Assembly: GCF_000014785.1 (NCBI RefSeq)
Contig: NC_008340.1
Span: forward strand, 2,580,001-2,612,000
Direction of reading: 5' to 3'
Source: Alkalilimnicola ehrlichii MLHE-1
GTDB taxonomy: Bacteria > Pseudomonadota > Gammaproteobacteria > Nitrococcales > Halorhodospiraceae
Length of the DNA: 32,000 nucleotides
A program made the position numbers and the translations under genes. The notes beneath the pieces are model-generated. The model searched no databases and was not told the DNA's origin. It saw only the letters and a list, made by a program, of their open reading frames with translations. Shown here piece after piece: positions 9,299 to 32,000 of the stretch. Every line of letters starts with the position of its first letter. Position 1 is the first letter of the stretch.

Positions 9299-9684
9299 CG
9301 GGGGGTGGGTGTGGCGGGTGCCCTCCCCCTGGTCACTGCGAGCCCCCGACCCATCACCCGTCACTGCGAGCCCCCGACCCATCACCCGTCACTGCGAGCC
9401 CCCGACCCATCACCCGTCACTGCGAGCCCCCGACCCATCACCCGTCACTGCGAGCCCCGGAGGGGCGCGGCAGTCCACGCCAGGGTATGGATCGCCGCGT
9501 CGCTTCGCTCCTCGCGATGACGGGGGGTGGCGCCCCCACCGTCACTGCGAGCGCGGCCCCGCCCCCACCGTCACTGCGAGCGCGGCCCCACCCCCACCGT
9601 CACTGCGAGGAGGCGAAGCCGACGTGGCAGTCTACCGCCCTGGATCGCCACGGGCCTGCAGCCCTCGCGATGACGGGGAGGGGG
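9299..9684 (+). repeat. Repeat array A of the GTCACTGCGAG...CTCGCGATGAC hairpin family
   Basis: It fills the whole convergent spacer between the regulator and ppiD. Heads fall at 9332/9360/9388/9416/9444 (28-bp period, identical filler CCCCCGACCCATCACCC). A full hairpin unit spans 9444-9523. Further heads fall at 9541/9570/9599 (29-bp period), and a second full unit ends about 9677. Confidence 0.95.
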
Positions 9685-14557: not shown

Positions 14558-15012
14558 GGTGGATCGCCGCGTCGCTGCGCTCCTCGCGATGACGGGGAGA
14601 AACCCTCCGGCCCGCGCGATGACGGGGTGGTGGGCCCCCACCGTCACTGCGAGGAGTGGCCCCCAACCGTCACTGCGAGGAGTGGCCCCCAACCGTCACT
14701 GCGAGGAGCGAAGCGACGTGGCAGTCTACCCCTCTGGATCGCCACGGGCCGTCGGCCCTCGCGATGACGGGGGTGGTGCCCCCTGCCCCCGTCACTGCGA
14801 GCCCCGAAGGGGCGTGGCAGTCCATGCCGGGGTGTGGATCGCCGCGTCGCTTCGCTCCTCGCGATGACGGGGAGAAACCCTCCGGCCCGCGCGATGACGG
14901 GGTGATGGGCCCCCACCGTCACTGCGAGGAGGCGAAGCCGACGTGGCAGTCTACCCCTCTGGATCGCCACGGGCCTTCGGCCCTCGCGATGACGGGGGTG
15001 GTGCCCCGCGAT
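14558..15012 (+). repeat. Repeat array B of the hairpin family (clpX-lon spacer)
   Basis: Tail-only modules at 14558-14630. Heads at 14643/14669/14695 (26-bp period, filler GAGTGGCCCCCAACC). Full units run about 14695-14770, 14791-14870 and 14918-14995. Confidence 0.95.
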
Positions 15013-19545: not shown

Positions 19546-20240
19546 GGACTGCCGCGCCCCCTTCGGGGGCTCGCAGTGACAGTGGAGGCACCACCCCCCG
19601 GTTATCGCGAGGGCCGCCACCTCCTCCCCGTCATCGCCAGGGCCGCCACCTCCTCCCCGTCATCGCCAGGGCCGCCACCTCCTCTCCGTCATCGCGAGGG
19701 CCGAAGGCCCGTGGCGATCCAGAGGGGTAGACTGCCACGTCGGCTTCGCCTCCTCGCAGTGACAGTGGGGGTACACCACCGCCCGTCATCGCGAGGAGCG
19801 CCCCTCCCCCCGTCATCGCGAGGGCCGAAGGCCCGTGGCGATCCAGAGGGGTAGACTGCCACGTCGGCTTCGCCTCCTCGCAGTGACAGTGGGGGTACAC
19901 CACCGCCCGTCATCGCGAGGAGCGCCCCTCCCCCCGTCATCGCGAGGGCCGAAGGCCCGTGGCGATCCAGGGCGGTAGACTGCCACGTCGGCTTCGCCTC
20001 CTCGCAGTGACAGTGGGGGTACACCACCGCCCGTCATCGCGAGGAGCGCCCCTCCCCCCGTCATCGCGAGGGCCGAAGGCCCGTGGCGATCCAGGGCGGT
20101 AGACTGCGACGTCGGCTTCGCCTCCTCGCAGTGACGGTGGGGGTGGGTCCCCGCTCGCAGCGACGGCGGGGCTTCCCCCGTCATCGCGAGGGCCGCCCCT
20201 CCCCTCGTCATCGCGAGGAGCGAAGCGACGCGGCGATCCA
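19546..20240 (-). repeat. Repeat array C of the hairpin family (inverted orientation)
   Basis: Tail micro-tandem at 19601/19630/19659/19688 (29-bp period). Four composite units follow with a 124-bp period (GTCATCGCGAGGGCCGAAGG at 19688/19812/19936/20060). Degenerate modules end at about 20240, 25 bp from the GIY-YIG stop. Confidence 0.95.
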
Positions 20241-20264: not shown

Positions 20265-20552
20265 TTAAATGATGTCGTGATACAAATCCCGCCACCCCGG
20301 ATTCATTGACTCTATCAACCCCACCTTCCGATTCCGGTTTCCCGACTTCAACTGCTTCTCCCGGCCGATGGCCGATGTCATGGTTTCATGGACTTCATAC
20401 CACACCAGCCGATGCAGGCCGTACCGTCGGGTAAACCCATCCACAAAGCCGGATTTATGCTGCCAGACACGTTGCACCAGGTTGCTGGTGACGCCGACAT
20501 AAAGCGTGCCGTTCCGGCCATTGGTCATGATATAGACACAGGGTTGGTTCAT
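20265..20552 (-). CDS. Stand-alone GIY-YIG nuclease (URI domain, COG2827/YhbQ-like)
   Basis: 95 aa: CVYIMTNGRNGTLYVGVTSNLVQRVWQHK...GFTRRYGLHRLVWYEVHETMTSAIGREKQLKSGNRNRKVGLIE (GIY...YVG, catalytic R and E). A strong AAGGAGG lies 7 nt upstream. GC is visibly lower (one 60-nt line spot-counted at 52%). Confidence 0.9.
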   Translation of the reverse strand: MNQPCVYIMTNGRNGTLYVGVTSNLVQRVWQHKSGFVDGFTRRYGLHRLVWYEVHETMTSAIGREKQLKSGNRNRKVGLIESMNPGWRDLYHDII

Positions 20553-21390: not shown

Positions 21391-21673
21391 ACTGCACAGA
21401 GGGGCGTGGCAGTCCAGGCGGCGGGTGGATCGCCGCGTCGCTTCGCTCCTCGCGATGACGGGGGTGGGTGCCGCCCCCACCGTCACTGCGAGGAGGCGAA
21501 GCCGACGTGGCAGTCTACCGCTCTGGATCGCCACGGGCCTTCGGCCCTCGCGATGACGGGGGTGCCCCGTTCCTCGTTGATTCGGGCCCGCGCAGCGGGG
21601 AGGGGGGCTCGCGATGACGGGGTGGGTGCCGCCCCCACCGTCACTGCGAGCCCCGGAGGGGCGTGGCAGTCCA
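21391..21673 (+). repeat. Repeat array D of the hairpin family
   Basis: A degenerate head plus GGGGCGTGGCAGTCC...TGGATCGCCGCGTCGCTTCGCTCCTCGCGATGACGG, a full unit at 21481-21560, a tail-only module about 21608-21620, and a head plus half unit at 21639-21673. Confidence 0.9.
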
Positions 21674-21814: not shown

Positions 21815-23002
21815 TCAGATCTGCCGCAACGCACGCTCCAAATGCCCAAAGCCGATCCGCTCCTGTTCCAGCCTCAGGCAATCCTGCAGGGTATCTTCCC
21901 GCAGGTCCTGGAAAAGCGCCTGTTCCGCCTCGGTGAGTAGCGAAAGGCGCCCTGTGAACCGCTTGTTAGCCGGCTCCCGCCCCCACATCTCACGGTGCAT
22001 CTCCAACGTCTCGCGGTCCATGAGCAGGGATCGGGCGTGGGGCAGGCGGGTGCGCAGGCGGTGGAGCATGGCGAAGCCGTGGGTGTCGATATCGCCCCAG
22101 TAGTGGACCGCCACCTCCCGCAGCCAGCCAACCCCCGCCAACCGCTCCAGCCCATAGCCCAGACCGAAGATCACCAGGCCGCCCGGGTGGTCGGGGAAGG
22201 CCAGGCCATTGATCTCGTTCTCGGTGATGAAGACCCGGCGCACCGGCAGGCGCAGGTCGGCGAACTGTTCCGGGGGCACCGAGAGGTCGCTCAGCCCCTG
22301 CACGTAGAGGGCGGGGTCCAGCAACCGGAAGCGCACCAGCGCCGGCTTCTCCCGCAGCCCGAAACGCCGTTCGAAGCCCCGGGCGCCGGTGGCCGACGGG
22401 TCGATGGCGGCCTCGGGCAGCACCGCGTCCAACAACTCGGTGAACAGCCGGCGCCGGGCCTCGATGAACTTGGTGTCCACCCCGGGGATGTCCAGTTGCC
22501 GCAGATAGATACCGGGCCGGGGGTGGGCGCGGAACCAGTCCAGCACGTCCAGAATGCGCGGCCAGGCCCCGGCCTCCGCCAGCGCCTGCAGCGGCCGCCG
22601 GGCCAGCCAGTCTGCCAGCGACGGGAAGCGGCGCAGGGTCTCCCCGGCCAGCGCCCGAAAGCGGGCCGCCTCCCGCTCACGGCCGATCAGGCGCAAGCCG
22701 TCCGCCTCGCTCGGGACAATCGCCCCGGCGGGCAGGTCATTGGCCCCATGCACCCGGTGGTTCACCCGCCGCCACTCGATCCCGTAGCCGTACCCCCGCT
22801 CATCGCGGCTGCCGGCCTGAAGCTGCTGCACCCAACGGCGCACGGCGACGAAGTCCTCGGCCAGATCCCGGGAGGTGGGGCGGCGCAGCCGCAGCGTGAG
22901 CGGAAAGAGCGACTCGCCGCGCACATAGGCGGCCAGCCAATCGCCGCGCTCCCATTGGCGCAACAACTGCTGGCGCAGCTCGTCGGGTGTCGTCCAACTC
23001 AT
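21815..23002 (-). CDS. jetD: Wadjet JetD (DUF3322 plus Toprim/DUF2220 nuclease subunit)
   Basis: From the internal ATG at 23002 (ATGA overlap with the jetC stop): MSWTTPDELRQQLLRQWERGDWL... Toprim acidic motifs are VFITENEINGLAF and YWGDIDTHGFAMLHRLR. The track start at 23278 lies inside jetC and is rejected. Confidence 0.9.
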   Translation of the reverse strand: MSWTTPDELRQQLLRQWERGDWLAAYVRGESLFPLTLRLRRPTSRDLAEDFVAVRRWVQQLQAGSRDERGYGYGIEWRRVNHRVHGANDLPAGAIVPSEADGLRLIGREREAARFRALAGETLRRFPSLADWLARRPLQALAEAGAWPRILDVLDWFRAHPRPGIYLRQLDIPGVDTKFIEARRRLFTELLDAVLPEAAIDPSATGARGFERRFGLREKPALVRFRLLDPALYVQGLSDLSVPPEQFADLRLPVRRVFITENEINGLAFPDHPGGLVIFGLGYGLERLAGVGWLREVAVHYWGDIDTHGFAMLHRLRTRLPHARSLLMDRETLEMHREMWGREPANKRFTGRLSLLTEAEQALFQDLREDTLQDCLRLEQERIGFGHLERALRQI

Positions 23003-26000
23003 GGCGCGATACGCTGGCGGGCGGCCTTCTCCGCCTGGTACTCCGCAATGGTGAGATTGCGCACCATAGACTCGCGCCCCTCCACGTTGTGCACAAACCC
23101 CACGCTGGCCACGAAGGGCTCGATGATGTGGATCTTCTGCAACGGGGTGACGATCAGCAACTGCAGGTTCAACCGCTGGAACAGCTCCAGGCCGTAACGG
23201 GCGGACTCGTCCGAGCCGCGGCCGAAGGCCTCGTCGATGACCACGAAGCGGAACGAGCGCGAGCGGGTCTCGCCCCACTCCAGCCCGAACTGGTAGGCCA
23301 GGCTCGCGGCCAGCACGGTATAGGCCAGCTTCTCCTTCTGCCCCCCGGACTTGCCCCCGGAATCGGCGTAGTGCTCGTACTCGCTGTCGTCCTCGCGCCA
23401 GCGTTCGGAGGCGGAGAAGACGAACCAGTTGCGCACATCGGTGACCTTGCGGGTCCAGCGCCGGTCCAGGTCGGTGGTTCCCTCCCGGCCGCGGAAGCGC
23501 TCGATGATGGCCTTCACCTGCAGGAACTTGGCCTCGGAGTACTGATCGTCGTCCGAGCCGGTCACCGCCCCCTCGGTGCAGGCGCGCAGGCTCTGCTGAA
23601 AGTCGCGGATCTCCGCGTCCGGGGCGCTTTCCGCCATCAGGGTGATGTAACGGTTGTCGTTGTAGTCGATCTCACGCAGCGAGCGGTTGATGGTGCCGAT
23701 GCGCTCCAGGATCGCCTGGCGCTCCCGATGCAGCCGGCTCTGGAAGGCGGCCACCTCGCGGATGGTGTTTTCGTTGAGCAGCTCCTTGAAGCGGGCCTCG
23801 AAGCGGGGCAGATCATCTGCCTGCAACTGCTCGAGCATGGCGCGATAGTCGCCGGCGGCCTCGACGCTCACATCCACCTCCTGGCTGTCCAGCGGCCAGG
23901 CGTCCTGGTAGCGGCGCATGGCGTCGATGATGCGGTCGCGCAACTGCGCCAGGCGCTTGTCCTCCGCGTCGATCTTGCCCTGCAGCCATTCGCGCATGTC
24001 CTTCTCGCGGTTGTCGCAGGACTCCACCGTCAGGGTGTGCTCACCCAGGGCCTCGTCGCGCATGGCGGCCAGGCGCGGAAAGTAGGTCTGCTGCGCCTCT
24101 TCCGGTGTCGACTCCAACAGCGTGTGGCAATCCTGCCACTGGGCCCGGGCCTGCTCCTGTTTCAGCTCGTTGGCGCTGATCTCGCGATCCGCCTGGCGGA
24201 CCTCGCCCTCGACGCCCTTGATGGTCTTTTCCAGCTCATCCAGTTGCCGCTCCAGCGCCCGGAGCACGTCCGAGCCCTCGGCCAGCTCCCGGTACTCGCG
24301 CTCCAGCGCCTCAATGTCGGCAGCCAGCGGACGCCAGTCCAGGGCCTGAAAATCCTGGAACAGGGTCAGCTCCTGGATGGTGTCGCGGCGGGCCTCCTGG
24401 GCCCGCCGTTCGTCCTCCCAGCCACCGATGCGCTTGGCGATGGCCTGCATGCGCTCGGCCAGCCCGTCGGCCTCGGCCTCCAGCGCGGCGATCTTCGCCT
24501 CGTTGCTCCAGCCCAGCACATAACGGGTGCGGTCATCGATACGGTGGCGGTCGTCCTTCTCGTGGCGGCCACCGCCGGCCTTTATCTGCCCGGCACGGGT
24601 GATCGCCCGCTTCTCACGACGGAATTGCTGCAGATCGGTGCAGCAAGCGTAATCGAAGCGCTGCGCCAGCGCCTGCTCCAGCCAGGTATAAAACGCCGAC
24701 TCCGGCCGGATGGCCAGCTTGCGCACCAGCGAGTCGGCGTGCAGCGACGGCGGCGGCGCGTCGCGGGCTTCGCGCACGCGGTAGTAGACCAACCGCCCCC
24801 GCAACCGGGTGCGGTCCACCCACTCGGCGACGCGGGCGTAGTGGCTGTCGGGCACCAGCAGCGACAGGCCGAAGTTGTGCAGCACCCGTTCGATGGCGCC
24901 CTCCCAGTCGCGCTCGTCGTCACGCACCTGCAGCAGTTCACCGGCGAAGGGCAGGTCCTCGGCGGGCACCTCCAGCGCGCGGCACAGGGCGGTGCGGATG
25001 GCGAGGATCTCCGCCGGGATGTTGGAGCGTCGACCGCGCAGCGATGCCAGCTCGGCATCCAGGTCCTCGTGCCGCCCCTTGAGCTGGTGCAGCTCCACGC
25101 TGGCCTCCGTAATCCGGTTCTGCAGCTCGCTGCGGGCGGTCTCGGTGGCCTCGCGGGCCACGGTGAGCGCCTCGCGGTTGGCGTGAAAGACCTCGTCGCT
25201 GGTGGCATCGGGCAGCTCCAGCCGGTGCGCCAGCCGCCGGTAGCGCTCGGCCTTCTCGCTGCGCTCCGCCTTCTCCCGCCGCTTGCGCTCCAGCTCCGCC
25301 TTGATCCGCTCCAGGCGGTCGCCGCCGTTCTCGGCGATCGCCTGCTTGAGCTCGTCGCGCCGGGCCCGCTGCTCGGTGAGCCGAGTGCTCAGCCCCTCAA
25401 TGCGCTGCTGCAGCCGCTCGTGCTCCTGGCCCAGGTTGTCCAACCGGCGGTCCAGCAGCTCGGCCTTCAGCGAGGCGAACCAGGGCCGCAACGCCTGGCG
25501 GCAATCGCGCAGCTCCCGGGCCCGGGTGGCCCGTTGGTCGTGCTCGTCGGCATCGCGCACCAGGGGAATCAACTGCGCCACCTGCGACTTGGCCTTCAAC
25601 ACCGCCTCGTGGGCCCGGTTGAGGTCGTCGAAATGGCGGATCAGCGCCTCGATCCGCTCCTCGACGGGGAAGGCCTCCAGCATGTGACTGCGCACGAACT
25701 CGGTCAGGTTACCCACCGACTTCATGGAGACCGTCTGGTTAAAGAGCTCCAGGGCCTGCTCATTGTCGATGCCGAAGCGCCGCCGGAAGGCACCGCCGTA
25801 GGGCGGAAAGGTGTCGTACAACTCCACGTGGGGCAGCCCGCGCAGGCGCTTGCGCAGGTTGGCCAGGTCGGTGCCGAAATTGGCGAAGTGCTCGGCGATG
25901 TTCAGCGGGCGGTCGGCGACCACGAAAAACCGCGCCGGCTGGCCCTGGGTGTCCTTCATCCAGAAGACCTGGGCCAGGGTCACATCGTGGCCGAAGCCCT

Positions 26001-26391
26001 CGTTGTGGAAGTGGCCGAGGATGACCGAGTAGTTGTTATGGTCGCGCAGGCCCACCGGCTTGCTGGCCAAGCCGGCGTCGCTACGCTCCGACTTGTAGTA
26101 GCCGAGGACGTAAGAGCGCAGGCTGCGCTCCTTGGCCTCCGCGCCGGCGGCCTTGTTGTAGGTGATCCGCTGAGCCGGCACCAGCAGCGTGGTGATGGCG
26201 TCCACCAAGGTGGACTTGCCGGAGCCGATGTCCCCGGTCAGCAGGCTGTTGTCGCCGCCGGGCTGCAGCGACCAGACGCGGTCGTGGAAGGTGCCCCAGT
26301 TGAACACCTCCAGCCGCTGGAGGCGAAAACCGGTGCGCTGGTCGGAGCCGGCGAAATCCAGTCCCTGGGTTTCCATACGATGGGGTTCCAT
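22999..26391 (-). CDS. jetC: Wadjet JetC (SMC/MukB-like ATPase)
   Basis: 1130 aa from the ATG at 26391. It has FRLQRLEVFNWGTFHDRVW, Walker A LLTGDIGSGKSTLVDAI, a long central Glu/Arg/Leu-rich coiled-coil region, and Walker B FRFVVIDEAFGRGSD. Confidence 0.92.
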   Translation of the reverse strand: MEPHRMETQGLDFAGSDQRTGFRLQRLEVFNWGTFHDRVWSLQPGGDNSLLTGDIGSGKSTLVDAITTLLVPAQRITYNKAAGAEAKERSLRSYVLGYYKSERSDAGLASKPVGLRDHNNYSVILGHFHNEGFGHDVTLAQVFWMKDTQGQPARFFVVADRPLNIAEHFANFGTDLANLRKRLRGLPHVELYDTFPPYGGAFRRRFGIDNEQALELFNQTVSMKSVGNLTEFVRSHMLEAFPVEERIEALIRHFDDLNRAHEAVLKAKSQVAQLIPLVRDADEHDQRATRARELRDCRQALRPWFASLKAELLDRRLDNLGQEHERLQQRIEGLSTRLTEQRARRDELKQAIAENGGDRLERIKAELERKRREKAERSEKAERYRRLAHRLELPDATSDEVFHANREALTVAREATETARSELQNRITEASVELHQLKGRHEDLDAELASLRGRRSNIPAEILAIRTALCRALEVPAEDLPFAGELLQVRDDERDWEGAIERVLHNFGLSLLVPDSHYARVAEWVDRTRLRGRLVYYRVREARDAPPPSLHADSLVRKLAIRPESAFYTWLEQALAQRFDYACCTDLQQFRREKRAITRAGQIKAGGGRHEKDDRHRIDDRTRYVLGWSNEAKIAALEAEADGLAERMQAIAKRIGGWEDERRAQEARRDTIQELTLFQDFQALDWRPLAADIEALEREYRELAEGSDVLRALERQLDELEKTIKGVEGEVRQADREISANELKQEQARAQWQDCHTLLESTPEEAQQTYFPRLAAMRDEALGEHTLTVESCDNREKDMREWLQGKIDAEDKRLAQLRDRIIDAMRRYQDAWPLDSQEVDVSVEAAGDYRAMLEQLQADDLPRFEARFKELLNENTIREVAAFQSRLHRERQAILERIGTINRSLREIDYNDNRYITLMAESAPDAEIRDFQQSLRACTEGAVTGSDDDQYSEAKFLQVKAIIERFRGREGTTDLDRRWTRKVTDVRNWFVFSASERWREDDSEYEHYADSGGKSGGQKEKLAYTVLAASLAYQFGLEWGETRSRSFRFVVIDEAFGRGSDESARYGLELFQRLNLQLLIVTPLQKIHIIEPFVASVGFVHNVEGRESMVRNLTIAEYQAEKAARQRIAP

Positions 26392-26393
26392 GC

Positions 26394-26993
26394 TCACTGC
26401 CCGTCGCCGGCGGTAGTGGTGGCCTCGGCGTGCTCGCGGTACTCGGCCAGGCGCTGGTCGAACTCCGCCAGCCACTGGGCGTCGATATAGGCCTTGATGA
26501 TCCGGCGCACCTCGTACTGATTATCCTGCCCGCGCAGCCGGCGCAGGAAACCCAGCTCCACCACCTTGTTGATGTCCGCGTGCACCCGGTCCACCAACTT
26601 CGCCTCGTTGGCGCTGGCCGGCAGGAAGACACGGATCAGCTCCACGATCTGCTCCCGCGAGAGGATCAGCCGCGGGTCGCCGCCGCCGGCATCGTGCTCC
26701 ACCAGCTTCTTGCGCAGCAGCGCCAGCAGCAGGCTTACCGGGTAGGTGAGCTGGCGGCGCGGCACCAGCCGGGGCAGCTCCGGCTCGTCCTCGGCGGGGG
26801 TCCGCTGGCGCAGGCAGGCGTGGCCCTCGGCCTCGTCCAGCATCAGCTCCAGCCCGAGCACGGCCACGTGGTCGCGCACCCGCGCCTGGTGGTCCTCAAG
26901 CACCTGCCAGTAGCGAGGGTTCTGGTCCTTGTACAGCACACCCTTGAACAGGGTGATCAGCATGGCCGAGAAGTCGGCGTCCTGTTCGCTCAT
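26394..26993 (-). CDS. jetB: Wadjet JetB (DUF4194, kleisin-associated KITE-like subunit)
   Basis: 199 aa from the ATG at 26993: MSEQDADFSAMLITLFKGVLYKDQNPRYWQVLEDHQARVRDHVAVLGLELMLDEAEGHACLRQ. This pattern, the size, and the position between jetA and jetC are all as in JetB. Confidence 0.85.
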   Translation of the reverse strand: MSEQDADFSAMLITLFKGVLYKDQNPRYWQVLEDHQARVRDHVAVLGLELMLDEAEGHACLRQRTPAEDEPELPRLVPRRQLTYPVSLLLALLRKKLVEHDAGGGDPRLILSREQIVELIRVFLPASANEAKLVDRVHADINKVVELGFLRRLRGQDNQYEVRRIIKAYIDAQWLAEFDQRLAEYREHAEATTTAGDGQ

Positions 26994-26997
26994 AGGC

Positions 26998-28434
26998 TCA
27001 ACGGCAGAAGATAACCTGCGGTAGCGTGGCGCTGCGGGCAACGCCGTCACGGTCGCGCCAGTATACGGTCTGCTGGCGGGTTTCATCGATCACGCTGCGG
27101 TGATCCTCTGTGGCCAGGGCCAGGTAGACCACCAGTTCGGCCAGGCCCTGCTCCAGCGGGTGTTGCTCCAACAGGGCCGCCAGGCTGATCTGCTCGCGGG
27201 TCTGCAGCGCCCGGCGCACCTGCCCTTGCAGCCGGGTGCGGTCCACGTAGGCCTGGTCGAACAGCGCCGCCACGTCGCCCTCCGCCTCGCCCGCCTCCAG
27301 CACCTGCTGCTCGATGCGCGGCGTAACCGGCGGACTGAAGAGCGGGCGCTCCATGGGCAGCTCCACCCGGGGCGCGGGTTCGTCCAGGGCCATGGTGAAA
27401 TCCCGGGGCGGGGCTTCCCGCAGGTGCAGGGCCTGCTGCTCCAACTCGCGGATCAGCCCCATGATGCGGCGGTTCTCCAGCCAGGCCTGATCGTCCAGAT
27501 AGCGGCGCAACTGCTCGGAGAGCCGCGCCACCACCCGCTGGGTGTGCTCGCCCGCCGCCAGCCAGTCGTAATGGATGCGGGCCAGGGTCGGGTCGGGCGC
27601 CACCTCGGTCACGGGCTCGAGCGCCAGGGTGCGCTCGAGCAGTTCGGTCAACTCCTCCTGGCGAGCCGGGGACATGAGCAGATCCCAGAAGGCGCGGAAG
27701 CTGCGGCCCTGGTCGGAATCGGCGATGCGGTCGTGCTCGCCGAAGACCTGGTCGAGGATATCGCCCTTGCCGCCCTCCCAGGTGGCCACCTGCTCGCGCA
27801 CCTGGCGGTCCAGCGCGCGGAAGTTGGCCTCCACCTGGCGGAAGTCCCCCAGCAGCCCGCGGGCCGTGTCGGCCATCTGCAGAAAACGCTCGCGCAGGCG
27901 GGTGGGGTCCATCAGGTTCAGGTGCCCGGCCCGCACCTCGTCGATCTCGCGCTCGATGGCGTCGCGCCGCGCCTCCAGATCGCGCAGGCGGGCCTCCGGG
28001 TCGGTCTCCGCCCCCTCCACGATCTGTTTCAGCAGATCAAACACCAGGGTGAGCCGCGACTCCGCACCGATAAAGTGGGCCTGCTCCAGGCCCGCCAGCC
28101 ACTGGATCGCCTGCTCGGTGGCCGGGGTGAGGTCGTAGTGGGGTTCGTCGCTGTGCTGCGGGTAGTACTTGCGCAACCAACCGCGCTCATCGGCAGCCCA
28201 ATATGCCAGGTACTCGTGAGCGCCCTGCTGGTAGGCCTCGTCACCCAACCGGGCGCGCAGGTGGTAGAGGTAGTCCTCCAGCGCATTCTCCAGCTCCGAG
28301 GCCGGCAGCGCCCGCACGTTGGGCACCACGAAACAGCGGTGCAGAAAGGCCACGACCATCGGCGCGTTACCGGCCTGCAACAGGCGCCACCCCGGATGGG
28401 TGCGCCGCAGGCTGTATAGGTGATCGTGATCCAT
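26998..28434 (-). CDS. jetA: Wadjet JetA (DUF3375, kleisin-like subunit)
   Basis: 478 aa: MDHDHLYSLRRTHPGWRLLQAGNAPMVVAFLHRCF...LEDYLYHLR...YLAYWAADERGWLRKYY. It is the first gene of the four-gene operon. Confidence 0.88.
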   Translation of the reverse strand: MDHDHLYSLRRTHPGWRLLQAGNAPMVVAFLHRCFVVPNVRALPASELENALEDYLYHLRARLGDEAYQQGAHEYLAYWAADERGWLRKYYPQHSDEPHYDLTPATEQAIQWLAGLEQAHFIGAESRLTLVFDLLKQIVEGAETDPEARLRDLEARRDAIEREIDEVRAGHLNLMDPTRLRERFLQMADTARGLLGDFRQVEANFRALDRQVREQVATWEGGKGDILDQVFGEHDRIADSDQGRSFRAFWDLLMSPARQEELTELLERTLALEPVTEVAPDPTLARIHYDWLAAGEHTQRVVARLSEQLRRYLDDQAWLENRRIMGLIRELEQQALHLREAPPRDFTMALDEPAPRVELPMERPLFSPPVTPRIEQQVLEAGEAEGDVAALFDQAYVDRTRLQGQVRRALQTREQISLAALLEQHPLEQGLAELVVYLALATEDHRSVIDETRQQTVYWRDRDGVARSATLPQVIFCR

Positions 28435-28461
28435 GGGGCTCGGGGTCGGGAATGTCGGGGG

Positions 28462-28470
28462 ATTGTAGCA
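28462..28470 (-). promoter_or_regulatory. Possible extended -10 promoter (TGcTACAAT) for jetA
   Basis: The minus strand reads TTGCTACAAT about 27-36 nt upstream of the jetA ATG. No good -35 element is present. Only about 65 bp separate jetA from repeat array E. Confidence 0.25.
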
Positions 28471-28499
28471 AGGTGGCCGGGCCTCGGCCTATGACGGCG

Positions 28500-29265
28500 T
28501 GTGGATCGCCGCGTCGCTGCGCTCCTCGCGATGACGGAGGGGTGGGTGCCCCCCACCGTCACTGCGAGCGCGGATCCGCCCCCACCGTCACTGCGAGGAG
28601 CGAAGCGACGTGGCAGTCTACCCCTCTGGATCGCCACGGGCCTCCGACCCTCGCGATGACGGGGGGTGTTACCCCACCGTCACTGCGAGGAGGCGAAGCC
28701 GACGTGGCAGTCTACCCCTCTGGATCGCCACGGGCCTCCGGCCCTCGCGATGACGGGGGGTGTTGCCCCCACCGTCACTGCGAGGAGGCGAAGCCGACGT
28801 GGCAGTCTACCCCTCTGGATCGCCGCGGGCCTCCGGCCCTCGCGATGACCGGGGGGTGTTGCCCCCACCGTCACTGCGAGGAGGCGAAGCCGACGTGGCA
28901 GTCTACCCCTCTGGATCGCCACGGGCCTCCGGCCCTCGCGATGACGGGGGGTGTTGCCCCCACCGTCACTGCGAGGAGGCGAAGCCGACGTGGCAGTCTA
29001 CCCCTCTGGATCGCCGCGGGCCTTCGGCCCTCGCGATGACGGGGGGTGTTGCCCCCACCGTCACTGCGAGGAGGCGAAGCCGACGTGGCAGTCTACCCCT
29101 CTGGATCGCCGCGGGCCTTCGGCCCTCGCGATGACGGGGGGTGTTGCCCCCACCGTCACTGCGAGGAGGCGAAGCCGACGTGGCAGTCTACCGCCCTGGA
29201 TCGCCGCGGGCCTCCGGCCCTCGCGATGACCGGGGGGAAAGCCTCCGGCCCTCGCGATGACGGGG
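28500..29265 (+). repeat. Repeat array E of the hairpin family (type array, 95-bp units)
   Basis: Heads GTCACTGCGAG at 28558, 28587, 28679, 28774, 28870, 28965, 29060 and 29155. Seven near-identical full units have periods of 92-96 bp. Two tail-only modules close the array at about 29265. Confidence 0.97.
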
Positions 29266-29390
29266 ATAACCCGTCAACCTGAGGGGCGGCCGTTGGACAA
29301 CGTAATTAGAGACTCATACCATATTGAGCATCCCTCCCGGCAACCTTTTGACAGCCACCGGGAATCCCGAGCCCCCAGAAGCCACCTTTC

Positions 29391-30575
29391 ATGTTAAGCG
29401 ACCAAGACCTGCTTGAACGCCTACGGAACGGGGAGTCCCGTCGGGTGGAGTTCAAACCCTCCACGGCGCAAAATACCGCGATCCGGAGGGCCATCTGTGC
29501 ATTCGCCAACGATCTTGATGGGCAGGGCGAGATCGGCGTGATCTTCGTGGGGCTCAACGATGACGGGACCTGCAAAGGGATCGAACATCCAGACCGCGAC
29601 CAGAAGAAGCTATCCGACTGGGCCTTGGGGGGCGACATCCTCCCCCTTCCTGACGTGGAAATCGGTTATCGCGAGCTGGACGGTTGCCCTGTCATAGTCG
29701 CCGAGATACGCCCCCACCAAGAACCCCCGGTACGCTACCAGGGCCAGGCGTGGGTCAGGGTTGGCACCACCAACCGCCGCGCTACTCCGGAACAGGAGAG
29801 ACGTTTGGCGGAGCGACGGCGGGGCGGAGACCTTCCCTTCGACCATCGGCCGGCCCCCGGCGCCAGTCTTGATGACCTCGATCTGAGGTACTTCGAGCGC
29901 GAGTACCTGCCCAATGCCGTCGCACCGGAGGTCCTGGAAGAGAACAACCGTAGCATCGAAGATCAACTCAACGCCCTCAGGTTTCTCACCCAGGGCCAAG
30001 TCAACCACGGTGCTCTGCTCGTCCTGGGGCACGACCCGACCGCCTATATACCGGGGGCCTACGTGCAGTTCCTACGCATCGACGGAACCGAGCTGGGCGA
30101 CCCCATCAAGGACGAAAAGAGACTGACCGGCAACCTGCCCGAGGTCATGGCGCAGCTGGACGAGTTGTTGGAGGTGCACATCCAGGTTGCTGTCGACATC
30201 GAGGCCGGATCACGGGAGCAGCGCCAGCCCGACTACCCCGTTGTTGCCTTGCAGCAACTCACCCGGAACGCCCTCATCCATCGCGCCTACGAAGGCAGCC
30301 ACGCGCCGGTCCGCGTCTATTGGTTCAGAGACCGGGTGGAAATTCAGAACCCCGGCGGACTCTACGGCCAAGTCACCACCGACAACTTCGGTCAGGGTGT
30401 CACCGATTACCGCAACCCCCTGATAGCAGAAGCCATGCATATTCTCGGCTACGTACAGAGATTCGGGTTCGGCATCCCATTGGCACAGCGCCACCTGCGG
30501 GAAAACGGCAACCCCGACCCCGATTTTCAGTTCGCGCCAGAGTTCCTGGCCGTCACCGTGAGGGCAGTGACGTGA
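29391..30575 (+). CDS. Schlafen/AlbA_2-domain protein with a C-terminal HATPase_c_4-like domain (COG2865-like), no terminal wHTH
   Basis: The N-terminal motif set is LLERLRNGESRRVEFKPS...AICAFANDLDGQGEIGVIFVGLNDDGTCKGI. The C-terminal segment is QLTRNALIHRAYEGSHAPVRVYWFRDRVEIQNPGGLYG...YRNPLIAEAMHILGYVQRFGFGIPL. Domain names come from motif memory, not from a search. Confidence 0.85.
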   Translation: MLSDQDLLERLRNGESRRVEFKPSTAQNTAIRRAICAFANDLDGQGEIGVIFVGLNDDGTCKGIEHPDRDQKKLSDWALGGDILPLPDVEIGYRELDGCPVIVAEIRPHQEPPVRYQGQAWVRVGTTNRRATPEQERRLAERRRGGDLPFDHRPAPGASLDDLDLRYFEREYLPNAVAPEVLEENNRSIEDQLNALRFLTQGQVNHGALLVLGHDPTAYIPGAYVQFLRIDGTELGDPIKDEKRLTGNLPEVMAQLDELLEVHIQVAVDIEAGSREQRQPDYPVVALQQLTRNALIHRAYEGSHAPVRVYWFRDRVEIQNPGGLYGQVTTDNFGQGVTDYRNPLIAEAMHILGYVQRFGFGIPLAQRHLRENGNPDPDFQFAPEFLAVTVRAVT

Positions 30576-31543
30576 TAACCATTGCCTTCTTCAACAACAA
30601 GGGTGGCGTCGGCAAGACTGCTTTGGTCTACCATTTGGCCTGGATGTTCGCCGATCAGGGCCGGTCCGTGCTCGCCGCGGACCTGGACCCCCAAGCCAAC
30701 CTCTCCACCATGTTCCTGGACGAACAAAGCCTGGAAGGCTTCTGGCCGGAGGGGGACAGCACGCATACCGTACTCTCACCCATACGCCCACTGCTGGAAG
30801 GCGAAGGCGGCATCGAAAGCCCTCATGTTGAGCCCATCGAGGACCTAGGCCTGCTGGTCGGAGACCTGGCCCTGTCCGGCTTCGAGGACGAACTCTCCCA
30901 GCAATGGCCCCGCTGCCTGGACGGCGAGAAGCGGGCCTTTCGCATCATCGGCGCCTTTGCCGAAGTCATCCAACGTGCCGGCGCCAACCGGGAAGCCGAC
31001 CTGGCGCTGGTGGATGTCGGCCCCAACCTGGGAGCCATCAATCGTGCCGCACTCATTGCCGCAGATTATGTGGTCGTGCCCCTGGGGCCGGACCTCTTTT
31101 CCCTGAAGGGACTGCAAAACCTGGGCCCCACCCTCCGACGGTGGCGTACGGACTGGCGCAAGCGGCTGCAGGAATTACCCACCAATGTACAAGCCCCATC
31201 GGGGCAAATGACGCCGATCGGTTACGTGGTCATGCAGCATTCCGTCCGACTTGACCGGCCGGTCAAGGCGTATGGCAAATGGATGGACCGGATCCCCAGC
31301 ACTTACCACCGTTACGTCCTCGACAAACCGGACGCTGCCAACCTGCGTGTCGACGACGACAGCGAATGTCTGGCTGCATTGAAGGACTATCGGAGCCTGA
31401 TGCCCATGGCTCAGGAAGCCCGCAAGCCCATGTTTCACCTCAAACCGGCGGACGGCGCCATCGGCTCCCACGTCCGTGCGGTACAAAACTGCTACAAAGA
31501 TTTCCGGGACCTGGCAGCGGCTATCGACAGCCGCACGCAGTGA
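30572..31543 (+). CDS. Orphan ParA/MinD-superfamily ATPase with a C-terminal extension
   Basis: GTG at 30572 overlaps the upstream TGA (GTGA). Motifs are VITIAFFNNKGGVGKTALV (deviant Walker A), LAADLDPQANLS and DLALVDVGPNLG. The next in-frame ATG would remove the Walker A, and the track ATG at 30320 would overlap the upstream gene by about 250 nt. Confidence 0.85.
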   Translation: MITIAFFNNKGGVGKTALVYHLAWMFADQGRSVLAADLDPQANLSTMFLDEQSLEGFWPEGDSTHTVLSPIRPLLEGEGGIESPHVEPIEDLGLLVGDLALSGFEDELSQQWPRCLDGEKRAFRIIGAFAEVIQRAGANREADLALVDVGPNLGAINRAALIAADYVVVPLGPDLFSLKGLQNLGPTLRRWRTDWRKRLQELPTNVQAPSGQMTPIGYVVMQHSVRLDRPVKAYGKWMDRIPSTYHRYVLDKPDAANLRVDDDSECLAALKDYRSLMPMAQEARKPMFHLKPADGAIGSHVRAVQNCYKDFRDLAAAIDSRTQ

Positions 31544-32000
31544 CGGTGGGGGCACCCCCCGTCATCGTGATGAGTGCAGGCCCTCCCCCCGGCATCGCGA
31601 GGGCCGAAGGCCCGTGGCGATCCAAGGCGGTAGACTGCCACGTCGGCTTCGCCTCCTCGCAGTGACGGTGTGGGCAACACCCCCCGTCATCGCGAGGGCC
31701 GAAGGCCCGTGGCGATCCAAGGCGGTAGACTGCCGCGTCGGCTTCGCCTCCTCGCAGTGACGGTGTGGGCAACACCCCCCGTCATCGCGAGGGCCGAAGG
31801 CCCGTGGCGATCCAAGGCGGTAGACTGCCACGTCGGCTTCGCCTCCTCGCAGTGACGGTGGGGTAACACCCCCGTCATCGCGAGGGCCGAAGGCCCGCGG
31901 CGATCCAGGGCGGTAGACTGCCACGTCGGCTTCGCCTCCTCGCAGTGACGGTGGGGGCAACACCCCCCGTCATCGCGAGGGCCGAAGGCCCGCGGCGATC
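31543..32000 (-). repeat. Repeat array F of the hairpin family (inverted orientation, runs off the window end)
   Basis: Tails G(T/G)CATCGCGAGGGCCGAAGG fall at 31591, 31686, 31781, 31874 and 31969 (period 93-95 bp). The reverse complement of a unit is near-identical to array E units, including the linker GGGGGGTGTTGCCC. Confidence 0.95.

Follow-up and report, generated by a model that had tools for sequence, protein, structure and literature searches.

The DNA analysed here, a 32,000-nucleotide stretch of the genome of Alkalilimnicola ehrlichii MLHE-1 (the window), carries fabI, lctP, lutCBA, a gntR-like regulator, ppiD, tRNAs, hupB, lon, clpX, clpP, tig, a DUF218 gene, tauE, the Wadjet operon jetDCBA, a Schlafen/AlbA_2-HATPase gene and a parA-like gene. 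Our subject is a tandem array of a 95-bp hairpin repeat at 28578-29237, the dispersed repeat family to which it belongs, and a gene for a small predicted GIY-YIG nuclease that lies 8 kb from the array. An earlier sequence-only reading of the locus had described the array and likened it to enterobacterial repeats.

The array and its half-unit hairpins

Tandem Repeats Finder (TRF) delimited an array at 28578-29237 with a period of 95, 7.0 copies, 97% matches and 1% indels. Its consensus is the 95-bp unit of the sequence-only reading, whose seven near-identical tandem units at 28500-29265 are therefore confirmed. Read from the sequence, the full cluster extends over 28504-29261 and comprises, besides the seven units, a solo half-unit, an orphan head and an orphan tail; unit no. 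1 of the array is the GAGCGAAGCGACG variant. A half-unit parse resolved the 95-bp unit into two inverted hairpins of 32-34 nt, which we call L and R. On the plus strand L reads CGTC-ACTGC-GAG-(inner hairpin)-CGYG-GCAGT-C, and on the minus strand R reads CGTC-ATCGC-GAG-(inner hairpin)-CGYG-GCGAT-C. The features of the cluster are as follows.

28578-29237: tandem array of seven 95-bp units (TRF, sequence and half-unit parse), each laid out as L (+), a 10-nt spacer, R (-) and a 19-nt G/C-rich linker
28504-28535 (-): complete R-type half-unit standing alone (GTCATCGCGAG-GAGCGCAGCGACGC-GGCGATC) at the edge of the cluster nearer to jetA (half-unit parse)
28558-28568 (+): orphan L 5' head (GTCACTGCGAG) without a 3' arm, 29 bp before the first complete L
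28587-28660: doublet 1, with L at 28587-28618 (+), inner module GAGCGAAGCGACGT, and R at 28629-28660 (-)
28679-28754: doublet 2, with L at 28679-28712 (+), module GAGGCGAAGCCGACGT, and R at 28723-28754 (-), module GGCCGGAGGCCCGT
28774-28849: doublet 3, with L at 28774-28807 (+) and R at 28818-28849 (-)
28870-28945: doublet 4, with L at 28870-28903 (+) and R at 28914-28945 (-)
28965-29040: doublet 5, with L at 28965-28998 (+) and R at 29009-29040 (-)
29060-29135: doublet 6, with L at 29060-29093 (+) and R at 29104-29135 (-)
29155-29230: doublet 7, with L at 29155-29188 (+) and R at 29199-29230 (-)
29241-29261 (-): orphan R 5' head with part of the inner stem (GTCATCGCGAGGGCCGGAGGC), without a 3' arm

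In the whole window 22 L and 25 R half-units are complete, and all 47 follow (C)GTC-AYYGC...GCRRT-C; a further 15 or so 5' heads are orphans. The inner hairpins are swappable (GGC-GAA-GCC, GGCC-GAA-GGCC, CCCC-GAA-GGGG and GAGC-GAA-GCGA, among others) and correspond to the modules of the sequence-only reading; the arm swaps that it had pointed out (GAGCGAAGCGACG, CCCCGRAGGGGCG) are real. Every convergent doublet (20 of 20) is heterotypic, pairing an L with an R, with the 3' ends 10 or 14 nt apart and the 5' GTC heads facing outward. The 32 kb contain 63 copies of the 11-mer core GTCAYYGCGAG, where 0.20 would be expected and 100 shuffles gave 2 at most; the core always appears as GTCACTGCGAG on one strand, with GTCATCGCGAG on the opposite strand. 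All 63 cores fall within six intergenic gaps, at 9.3, 14.6, 19.5-20.2, 21.4-21.7, 28.5-29.3 and 31.6-32.0 kb, and the repeat clusters together occupy about 10% of the window.

The sequence-only reading had taken each unit for an imperfect palindrome of about 80 nt. In silico it does fold in that way: an example unit gave -48.9 kcal/mol (z -3.9) with RNA parameters and -24.6 kcal/mol (z -3.1) with DNA parameters, and RNA folds across units ranged from -46 to -62 kcal/mol (z -3.7 to -6.1). The whole unit folds as a long hairpin because two inverted copies stand side by side. However, the conserved structural unit is the 32-34-nt half-unit hairpin and not the ~80-nt palindrome. The stem dinucleotides CT:AG and TC:GA are complementary inside each half and always mismatched between halves, and this heterotypy makes the long hairpin 11 kcal/mol less stable than a homotypic design would be. 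In a census that imposed no complementarity requirement, 48 of 50 half-units in the window had complementary stem dinucleotides. The 120 loci from other genomes (n = 480) yielded TC:GA 142 times, CT:AG 120, TT:AA 38, CC:GG 7 and TG:CA 3, against a chance rate of 1 in 16.

When 112 distinct 32-nt half-units were aligned, 86% of cells were paired in the half-unit hairpin, compared with at most 55% when the partners were slid. There were 164 double-sided changes, against 50.6 +/- 5.1 in shuffled data, and none of 500 shuffles reached 164; the inner stem covaried freely among half-units. Compensatory changes between arms, a point raised by the sequence-only reading, are thus present within half-units, but the long hairpin is mismatched at exactly those positions. 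Although the 80-nt hairpin is the fold of lowest free energy, we therefore rejected it as the conserved structure. The outer stem has almost no G-T pairs, and neither do the two innermost positions of the inner stem, a pattern expected of a constraint at the DNA level and not at the RNA level.

TRF also detected tandem arrays with a period of 26-29 bp (9332-9458, 9531-9609, 14633-14708 and 19589-19703) that consist only of the 5' head and a variable share of the inner stem; similar arrays occur at four loci from other genomes. Each closes with a complete half-unit. The orphans are 5' parts in every case and never 3' parts; they account for 15 of the 63 heads in the window, and 14 of these 15 have another head within 49 nt.

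A GIY-YIG gene and the motifs that accompany it

The cluster at 19.5-20.2 kb adjoins the nuclease gene, and the two features that concern us here are these.

20265-20552 (-): ssn-type gene, 95-aa single-domain GIY-YIG nuclease (predicted), with residues Y7, Y18 and E65
20207-20238 (+): R-type half-unit, 27 bp downstream of the stop codon of ssn and on the other strand

PF01541 is the only Pfam domain of the 95-aa protein (E 8.6e-15). Y7, Y18 and E65 are invariant in an alignment of its homologues, of which 2960 were found, and the catalytic residues of the 94-aa SsnA of N. meningitidis (Y6, Y17 and E64) are collinear with them. An AlphaFold2 model (predicted local distance difference test score, pLDDT, 93.5) has the GIY-YIG fold, and its best matches in the PDB were UPF0213, the N-terminal domain of UvrC, and Slx1. 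The sequence match to UPF0213 was remote (E 0.0024). No specific family was assigned to the protein in NCBIfam, in PADLOC or in a PDB sequence search, and the copy of the PDB that was searched held no solved Ssn structure. The half-unit beside the gene has the usual head-outward position and is followed by a cluster of about 700 bp.

The association between gene and motif was examined from both directions. For a protein-first test, an alignment of 30 homologues (66-82% identical, from several phyla) led to 80 metagenomic and 55 IMG/VR loci. A hairpin of the form GTC-stem...stem-C was present within 200 bp of the homologue gene in 75 of the 80 metagenomic loci, and on both sides of it in 61; control patterns were found near the gene in 15-24 of the 80. 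The motifs were oriented head-outward, lying upstream on the gene strand 71 times and downstream on the opposite strand 69 times. They formed a series of GTCATTGCGAG...GCAATC (the commonest), GTCATTCCGGCGAAAGCCGGAATC and GTCATTCCCGCGAAGGCGGGAATC, the last of which is identical to the Neisseria NTS. At 10 loci an exact match to the 28-nt NTS consensus stood beside proteins about 55-63% identical to that of the window, which ties the window protein to the published Ssn family.

From the DNA side, a head-N45-65-tail pattern matched at least 120 stretches in one-per-species genomes from many phyla; hosts among the matches listed include Alpha-, Beta- and Gammaproteobacteria (Halorhodospira and Thiohalorhabdus among them), Bacteroidota, Acidobacteriota, Chloroflexota, Gemmatimonadota and others. 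The inner motifs GCAGTC and GATCGC were conserved among the matches listed although they lie outside the query pattern. The sequence-only reading had proposed a dispersed, modular, orientation-switching hairpin family, and its own counter-case, a family confined to one locus, does not apply: there are six clusters in the window and many phyla beyond it. Nor is the family a species-specific repeat of the REP (repetitive extragenic palindrome) kind. For the same reason a plain local satellite, that is, tandem duplication without a dispersed family or a specific partner, is refuted, its probability being negligible: internal units are 97% identical and copy number differs between strains, but six separate clusters with differing inner modules lie within 32 kb and at least 120 stretches exist elsewhere. 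In two of the DNA-first loci, from Chloroflexia and Rhodospirillales, an ssn homologue is directly followed by a unit, and in the Rhodospirillales locus it is flanked on both sides; a jackhmmer search of the 120 loci recovered only these two ssn genes, too few for an enrichment statistic.

As a separate observation, the 55 IMG/VR contigs that encode a homologue are classed as viral. The GTC-stem...stem-C hairpin was within 200 bp in 34 of the 53 analysed, but one control pattern reached 28. The exact Neisseria NTS consensus stood beside the homologue on seven of these contigs (viral classification as given).

Two types of motif were compared. The degenerate string published for Ssn-related motifs (SRM), HGTCWYN(0-2)YYVSBRHN(0-5)WNVSBRGN(0-2)RNCYNB, matches the NTS itself. 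Among the 80 homologue loci, motifs of this regex type stood near the gene in 34 and motifs of the GCGAG type in 35, and no locus had both. The proteins divide in parallel: all 34 GCGAG-type proteins have G at residue 71, where 57 of 59 regex-type proteins have W; at residue 75 the GCGAG-type group has K or R, and W is again present in 57 of the 59 regex-type proteins. Both residues sit, in the AlphaFold2 model, at the turn between the helix bearing E65 and the next helix, and on this pattern of substitution they are candidate specificity determinants. The covariation of protein and target supports the window enzyme as the cognate partner of the window repeats.

The repeats as probable Ssn targets, and the alternatives

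The Ssn family (CDD cd10448) comprises single-domain GIY-YIG enzymes of about 94 aa that bind hairpin repeats as single-stranded DNA (ssDNA) only, namely the Neisseria NTS (CGTCATTCCCGCGMAVGCGGGAATCYRG) and, more broadly, SRMs (Chenal et al. 2025, Nat Commun, PMC11893778). The NTS is described as C-GTC-ATTCCCGCG-MAV-CGCGGGAAT-C, and the cut falls a few nucleotides upstream of the motif. The GTC before the palindrome is needed for cutting and the C after it for binding; the loop tolerates replacement or extension, and RNA and double-stranded DNA are not substrates. In N. meningitidis the system reduces transformation by NTS-carrying DNA (PMC11893778). A literature search on A. ehrlichii repeats, YhbQ and later Ssn work found nothing beyond Chenal et al., and the 11-mer cores gave only chance primer matches.

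Very probably, the array is a cluster of Ssn-related hairpin motifs, a group that includes the Neisseria NTS, with the GIY-YIG nuclease at 20265-20552(-) as its partner. The partner enzyme encoded in the window is thus an Ssn-type nuclease, overlooked by the sequence-only reading, and not a transposase, and the system is a new instance of the known Ssn/SRM kind whose motif subclass the published string misses. It shares with the published systems a single-domain GIY-YIG protein of 94-95 aa, motifs that flank the nuclease gene, a directional hairpin with GTC directly 5' and C directly 3' of the palindrome, many intergenic copies around genes (hundreds as published, 63 cores in 32 kb here) and a cross-phylum distribution. 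It differs in that the stem is interrupted, whereas the published stem is a continuous 9 bp; in belonging to a G71/K75 rather than a W71/W75 subclade; and in the strictly heterotypic inverted doublets and their tandem arrays. The dRS3 elements of Neisseria, about half of whose copies are NTS motifs (PMC11893778), likewise belong in that half to the same motif family and are grouped around particular genes, but they are defined solely by ATTCCC-N8-GGGAAT, and the sequence and organization seen here differ.

By homology with the enzymes of Neisseria, N. elongata, N. wadsworthii and Wolbachia, from which cleavage of ssDNA alone, the cut position and the biological role are carried over, the system may work as follows. 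Whenever either strand is exposed as ssDNA, during replication or repair or as incoming transforming or conjugative DNA, a half-unit would fold into a hairpin with a 5-bp outer stem (AYYGC/GCRRT), a conserved GAG/CGNN internal loop, a variable inner stem of 3-5 bp and a GNA triloop. Ssn would bind this hairpin, reading the GTC directly 5' and the C directly 3' of the palindrome, and nick the same strand a few nucleotides upstream, which here is predicted to be in the C-rich linker. The array would then present a row of 14 Ssn sites, seven per strand, and tandem copies would be gained and lost through unequal recombination or slippage. The role might be to limit recombination of incoming ssDNA around the bracketed genes, or it might be selfish spread. 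Among the functions that had been suggested for the units, the most fitting is that of a protein-binding DNA hairpin, which the repeat probably is.

Several points weigh against this interpretation. The published SRM string has no match on either strand of the window, and the tie to the family was made through homologous loci rather than by direct comparison with cd10448 or with N. meningitidis SsnA (NMB0047). The biochemistry comes from four homologues, none of them from the GCGAG-type subclass or from A. ehrlichii. One enzyme would have to accept two stem alleles, and in Neisseria altering the palindrome sequence abolished activity (PMC11893778). With DNA parameters the long hairpin (-24.6 kcal/mol) is preferred over two local hairpins (-14.5 kcal/mol), so that local folding would need kinetic trapping or a protein. 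The ssn gene of the window has a motif on one side only, with none in the 33 bp upstream. Finally, A. ehrlichii is not known to be naturally competent, and the role seen in Neisseria may not transfer.

The strongest competitor, possible though improbable in our estimate, is that the 76-nt L/R doublet is a selfish miniature, a non-autonomous copy of an SRM-ssn-SRM element standing to its parent as a miniature inverted-repeat transposable element (MITE) or a REPIN (a doublet of REPs) does. Ssn would then move the doublets, and the arrays would be repeated insertions rather than sites selected by the host. The doublets do share the head-outward geometry of SRM-ssn-SRM with the gene missing, and the element recurs across phyla beside a protein that keeps 57-82% identity. 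The authors of the Ssn study noted that NTS-ssnA-NTS resembles an insertion sequence (IS) and raised an IS-like origin (PMC11893778). However, Ssn consists of one nuclease domain only and is not known to carry out strand transfer; the two strains compared below differ in tandem copy number only, with no clean presence or absence of a doublet; and no target-site duplication was identified. The subterminal hairpins of IS200/IS605 elements and their MITEs offer a parallel, being imperfect hairpins recognized in ssDNA and cut at a fixed distance outside, with short non-autonomous derivatives. Here, in contrast, the scanned ORFs yielded no transposase, the repeats are not known to transpose, and no target-site signature was found.

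A related and similarly tentative proposal sets the GCGAG-type motif and the G71/K75 subclade of Ssn apart as a specificity class of their own, with the L/R doublet as its mobilizable, gene-less, REPIN-like miniature. The CT:AG and TC:GA alleles would then be kept unlike, so that each strand folds into local Ssn substrates and not into one long hairpin, and the 26-29-bp orphan-head arrays could be scars of aborted copying.

We consider it very unlikely that the repeats act at the RNA level, as terminators, 3' stabilizers, processing sites or structured non-coding RNA. The predicted RNA folds are strong, and the clusters at 9.3, 19.5 and 31.6 kb adjoin gene 3' ends. However, the array at 28.5-29.3 kb stands between divergent gene starts and lacks a T-tract terminator; a terminator scan of 28400-29420 returned no terminator-like site. 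The role of terminator or 3' stabilizer suggested by the sequence-only reading is therefore unfit for this array. Units occur in both orientations relative to adjacent genes, their stems avoid G-U pairs, and SsnA of N. meningitidis does not bind RNA (PMC11893778). In an Rfam search of the window only tRNAs reached gathering scores, and the array gave nothing beyond generic hairpin or miRNA matches, which scored well under the threshold and had E of at least 0.01. Hammerhead and hairpin ribozymes, attC sites and CRISPR were also dropped on inspection of the sequence, the core motifs, spacers or cas genes being absent.

Still less probable is the explanation suggested by the likeness to REPs and to bacterial interspersed mosaic elements (BIMEs), in which REP-like hairpins are spread or maintained by a REP-associated Y1 transposase (RAYT, of IS200/IS605 type) encoded elsewhere in the genome. 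The likeness itself holds, and Chenal et al. made the same comparison with REP/BIME and RAYT (PMC11893778). The clusters are mosaic, intergenic and of alternating orientation, and two hairpin types alternate as the Y and Z REPs do. As in the REP/BIME/REPIN and RAYT systems of E. coli and Pseudomonas, short intergenic hairpins of two variants stand inverted in mosaic arrays, doublets are able to form a long hairpin, and a single-copy gene for a partner enzyme is flanked by repeats. The partner here, however, is a GIY-YIG nuclease and not an HUH/Y1 transposase, and the repeats co-occur with its gene in both the protein-first and the DNA-first comparison. No Y1_Tnp domain (PF01797), RAYT or other transposase domain was detected by Pfam in the ORFs scanned. 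These were a part of the 119 ORFs of at least 80 aa, namely the gene-sized candidates from each interval and ten of the others; to that extent the earlier statement that the window has no RAYT stands. The tetranucleotide GTAG, taken in the sequence-only reading as a link to REPs, does occur in the spacer of the main subtype, read on the opposite strand, but is limited to that subtype: other subtypes in the window have CCATGCC, and other genomes have CCAG or CTCN. Since it is not conserved we dropped it as a hallmark, and the family is without the conserved GT[AG]G of REPs. Its 11-mer core is common to many phyla, unlike species-specific REPs.

Other clusters, strain differences and significance

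The remaining five clusters of the window are arranged as follows.

9332-9674: cluster between the gntR-like gene and ppiD, with orphan-head arrays of 28 bp x 4.5 and 29 bp x 2.7, each terminating in a complete L/R doublet
14562-14993: cluster between lon and clpX, with a solo R, a 26-bp x 3 orphan-head array and three L/R doublets that represent three module types
19547-20238: cluster beside ssn, with a 29-bp orphan-head array (19589-19703) and a 124-bp x 3.9 array (19656-20144) whose unit is an orphan head plus an R/L doublet
21428-21671: cluster between tauE and jetD, with R, an L/R doublet, an orphan R head and L
31585-32000: second 95-bp array, at least 4.4 copies in inverted orientation, continuing past the end of the window

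The lon-clpX gap places a 430-bp motif cluster inside the conserved tig-clpP-clpX-lon-hupB-tRNA-ppiD block; if that block is co-transcribed, the repeats at 14562-14993 would sit within a housekeeping transcription unit. The complete Wadjet operon jetDCBA (21815-28434) is bracketed by the clusters at 21428-21671 and 28504-29261, a motif-gene-motif layout that in Neisseria lowers replacement by transforming DNA. Adjoining the array, 29391-30575 encodes a protein with Schlafen/AlbA_2 and HATPase_c_4 domains, with weak PADLOC matches to proteins associated with prokaryotic Argonautes (pAgo), and 30320-31543 encodes a ParA-like ATPase with a weak match to PDC-M28B; the two genes may together constitute a module for defence.

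A second A. ehrlichii genome (CP184336) is 98-99.7% identical across 15 kb shared with the window. At the site of the 28.5-29.3 kb array it has 4.0 copies, compared with 7.0 in MLHE-1, and beside ssn it has two 124-bp units fewer; there was no further structural difference over the shared 15 kb. Synteny stops at about 31567, at the start of the array at 31585-32000. Beyond the parA-like gene CP184336 has, in place of the sequence in MLHE-1, hipBA, PIN and MqsA-type modules together with a Tn7/Mu-like transposase, and more arrays are interspersed with these. In both strains the short-read assemblies are interrupted precisely at the arrays that flank the jet operon, the MLHE-1 contig of the locus (5.6 kb) ending there, which fits a high genome-wide copy number.

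That the arrays bracket the Wadjet operon and mark a break in synteny fits motifs that shape the recombination of incoming DNA. A name and a partner enzyme can now be assigned to repeats that fill about 10% of the window, and the published SRM string misses roughly half of the motif types beside close Ssn homologues. With two compensated stem alleles, swappable inner hairpins and a two-residue signature, the family provides natural material on how a 95-residue enzyme reads a hairpin. Ssn enzymes are under development as site-specific ssDNA cutters, so a second specificity class, if it is real, would be of practical value.

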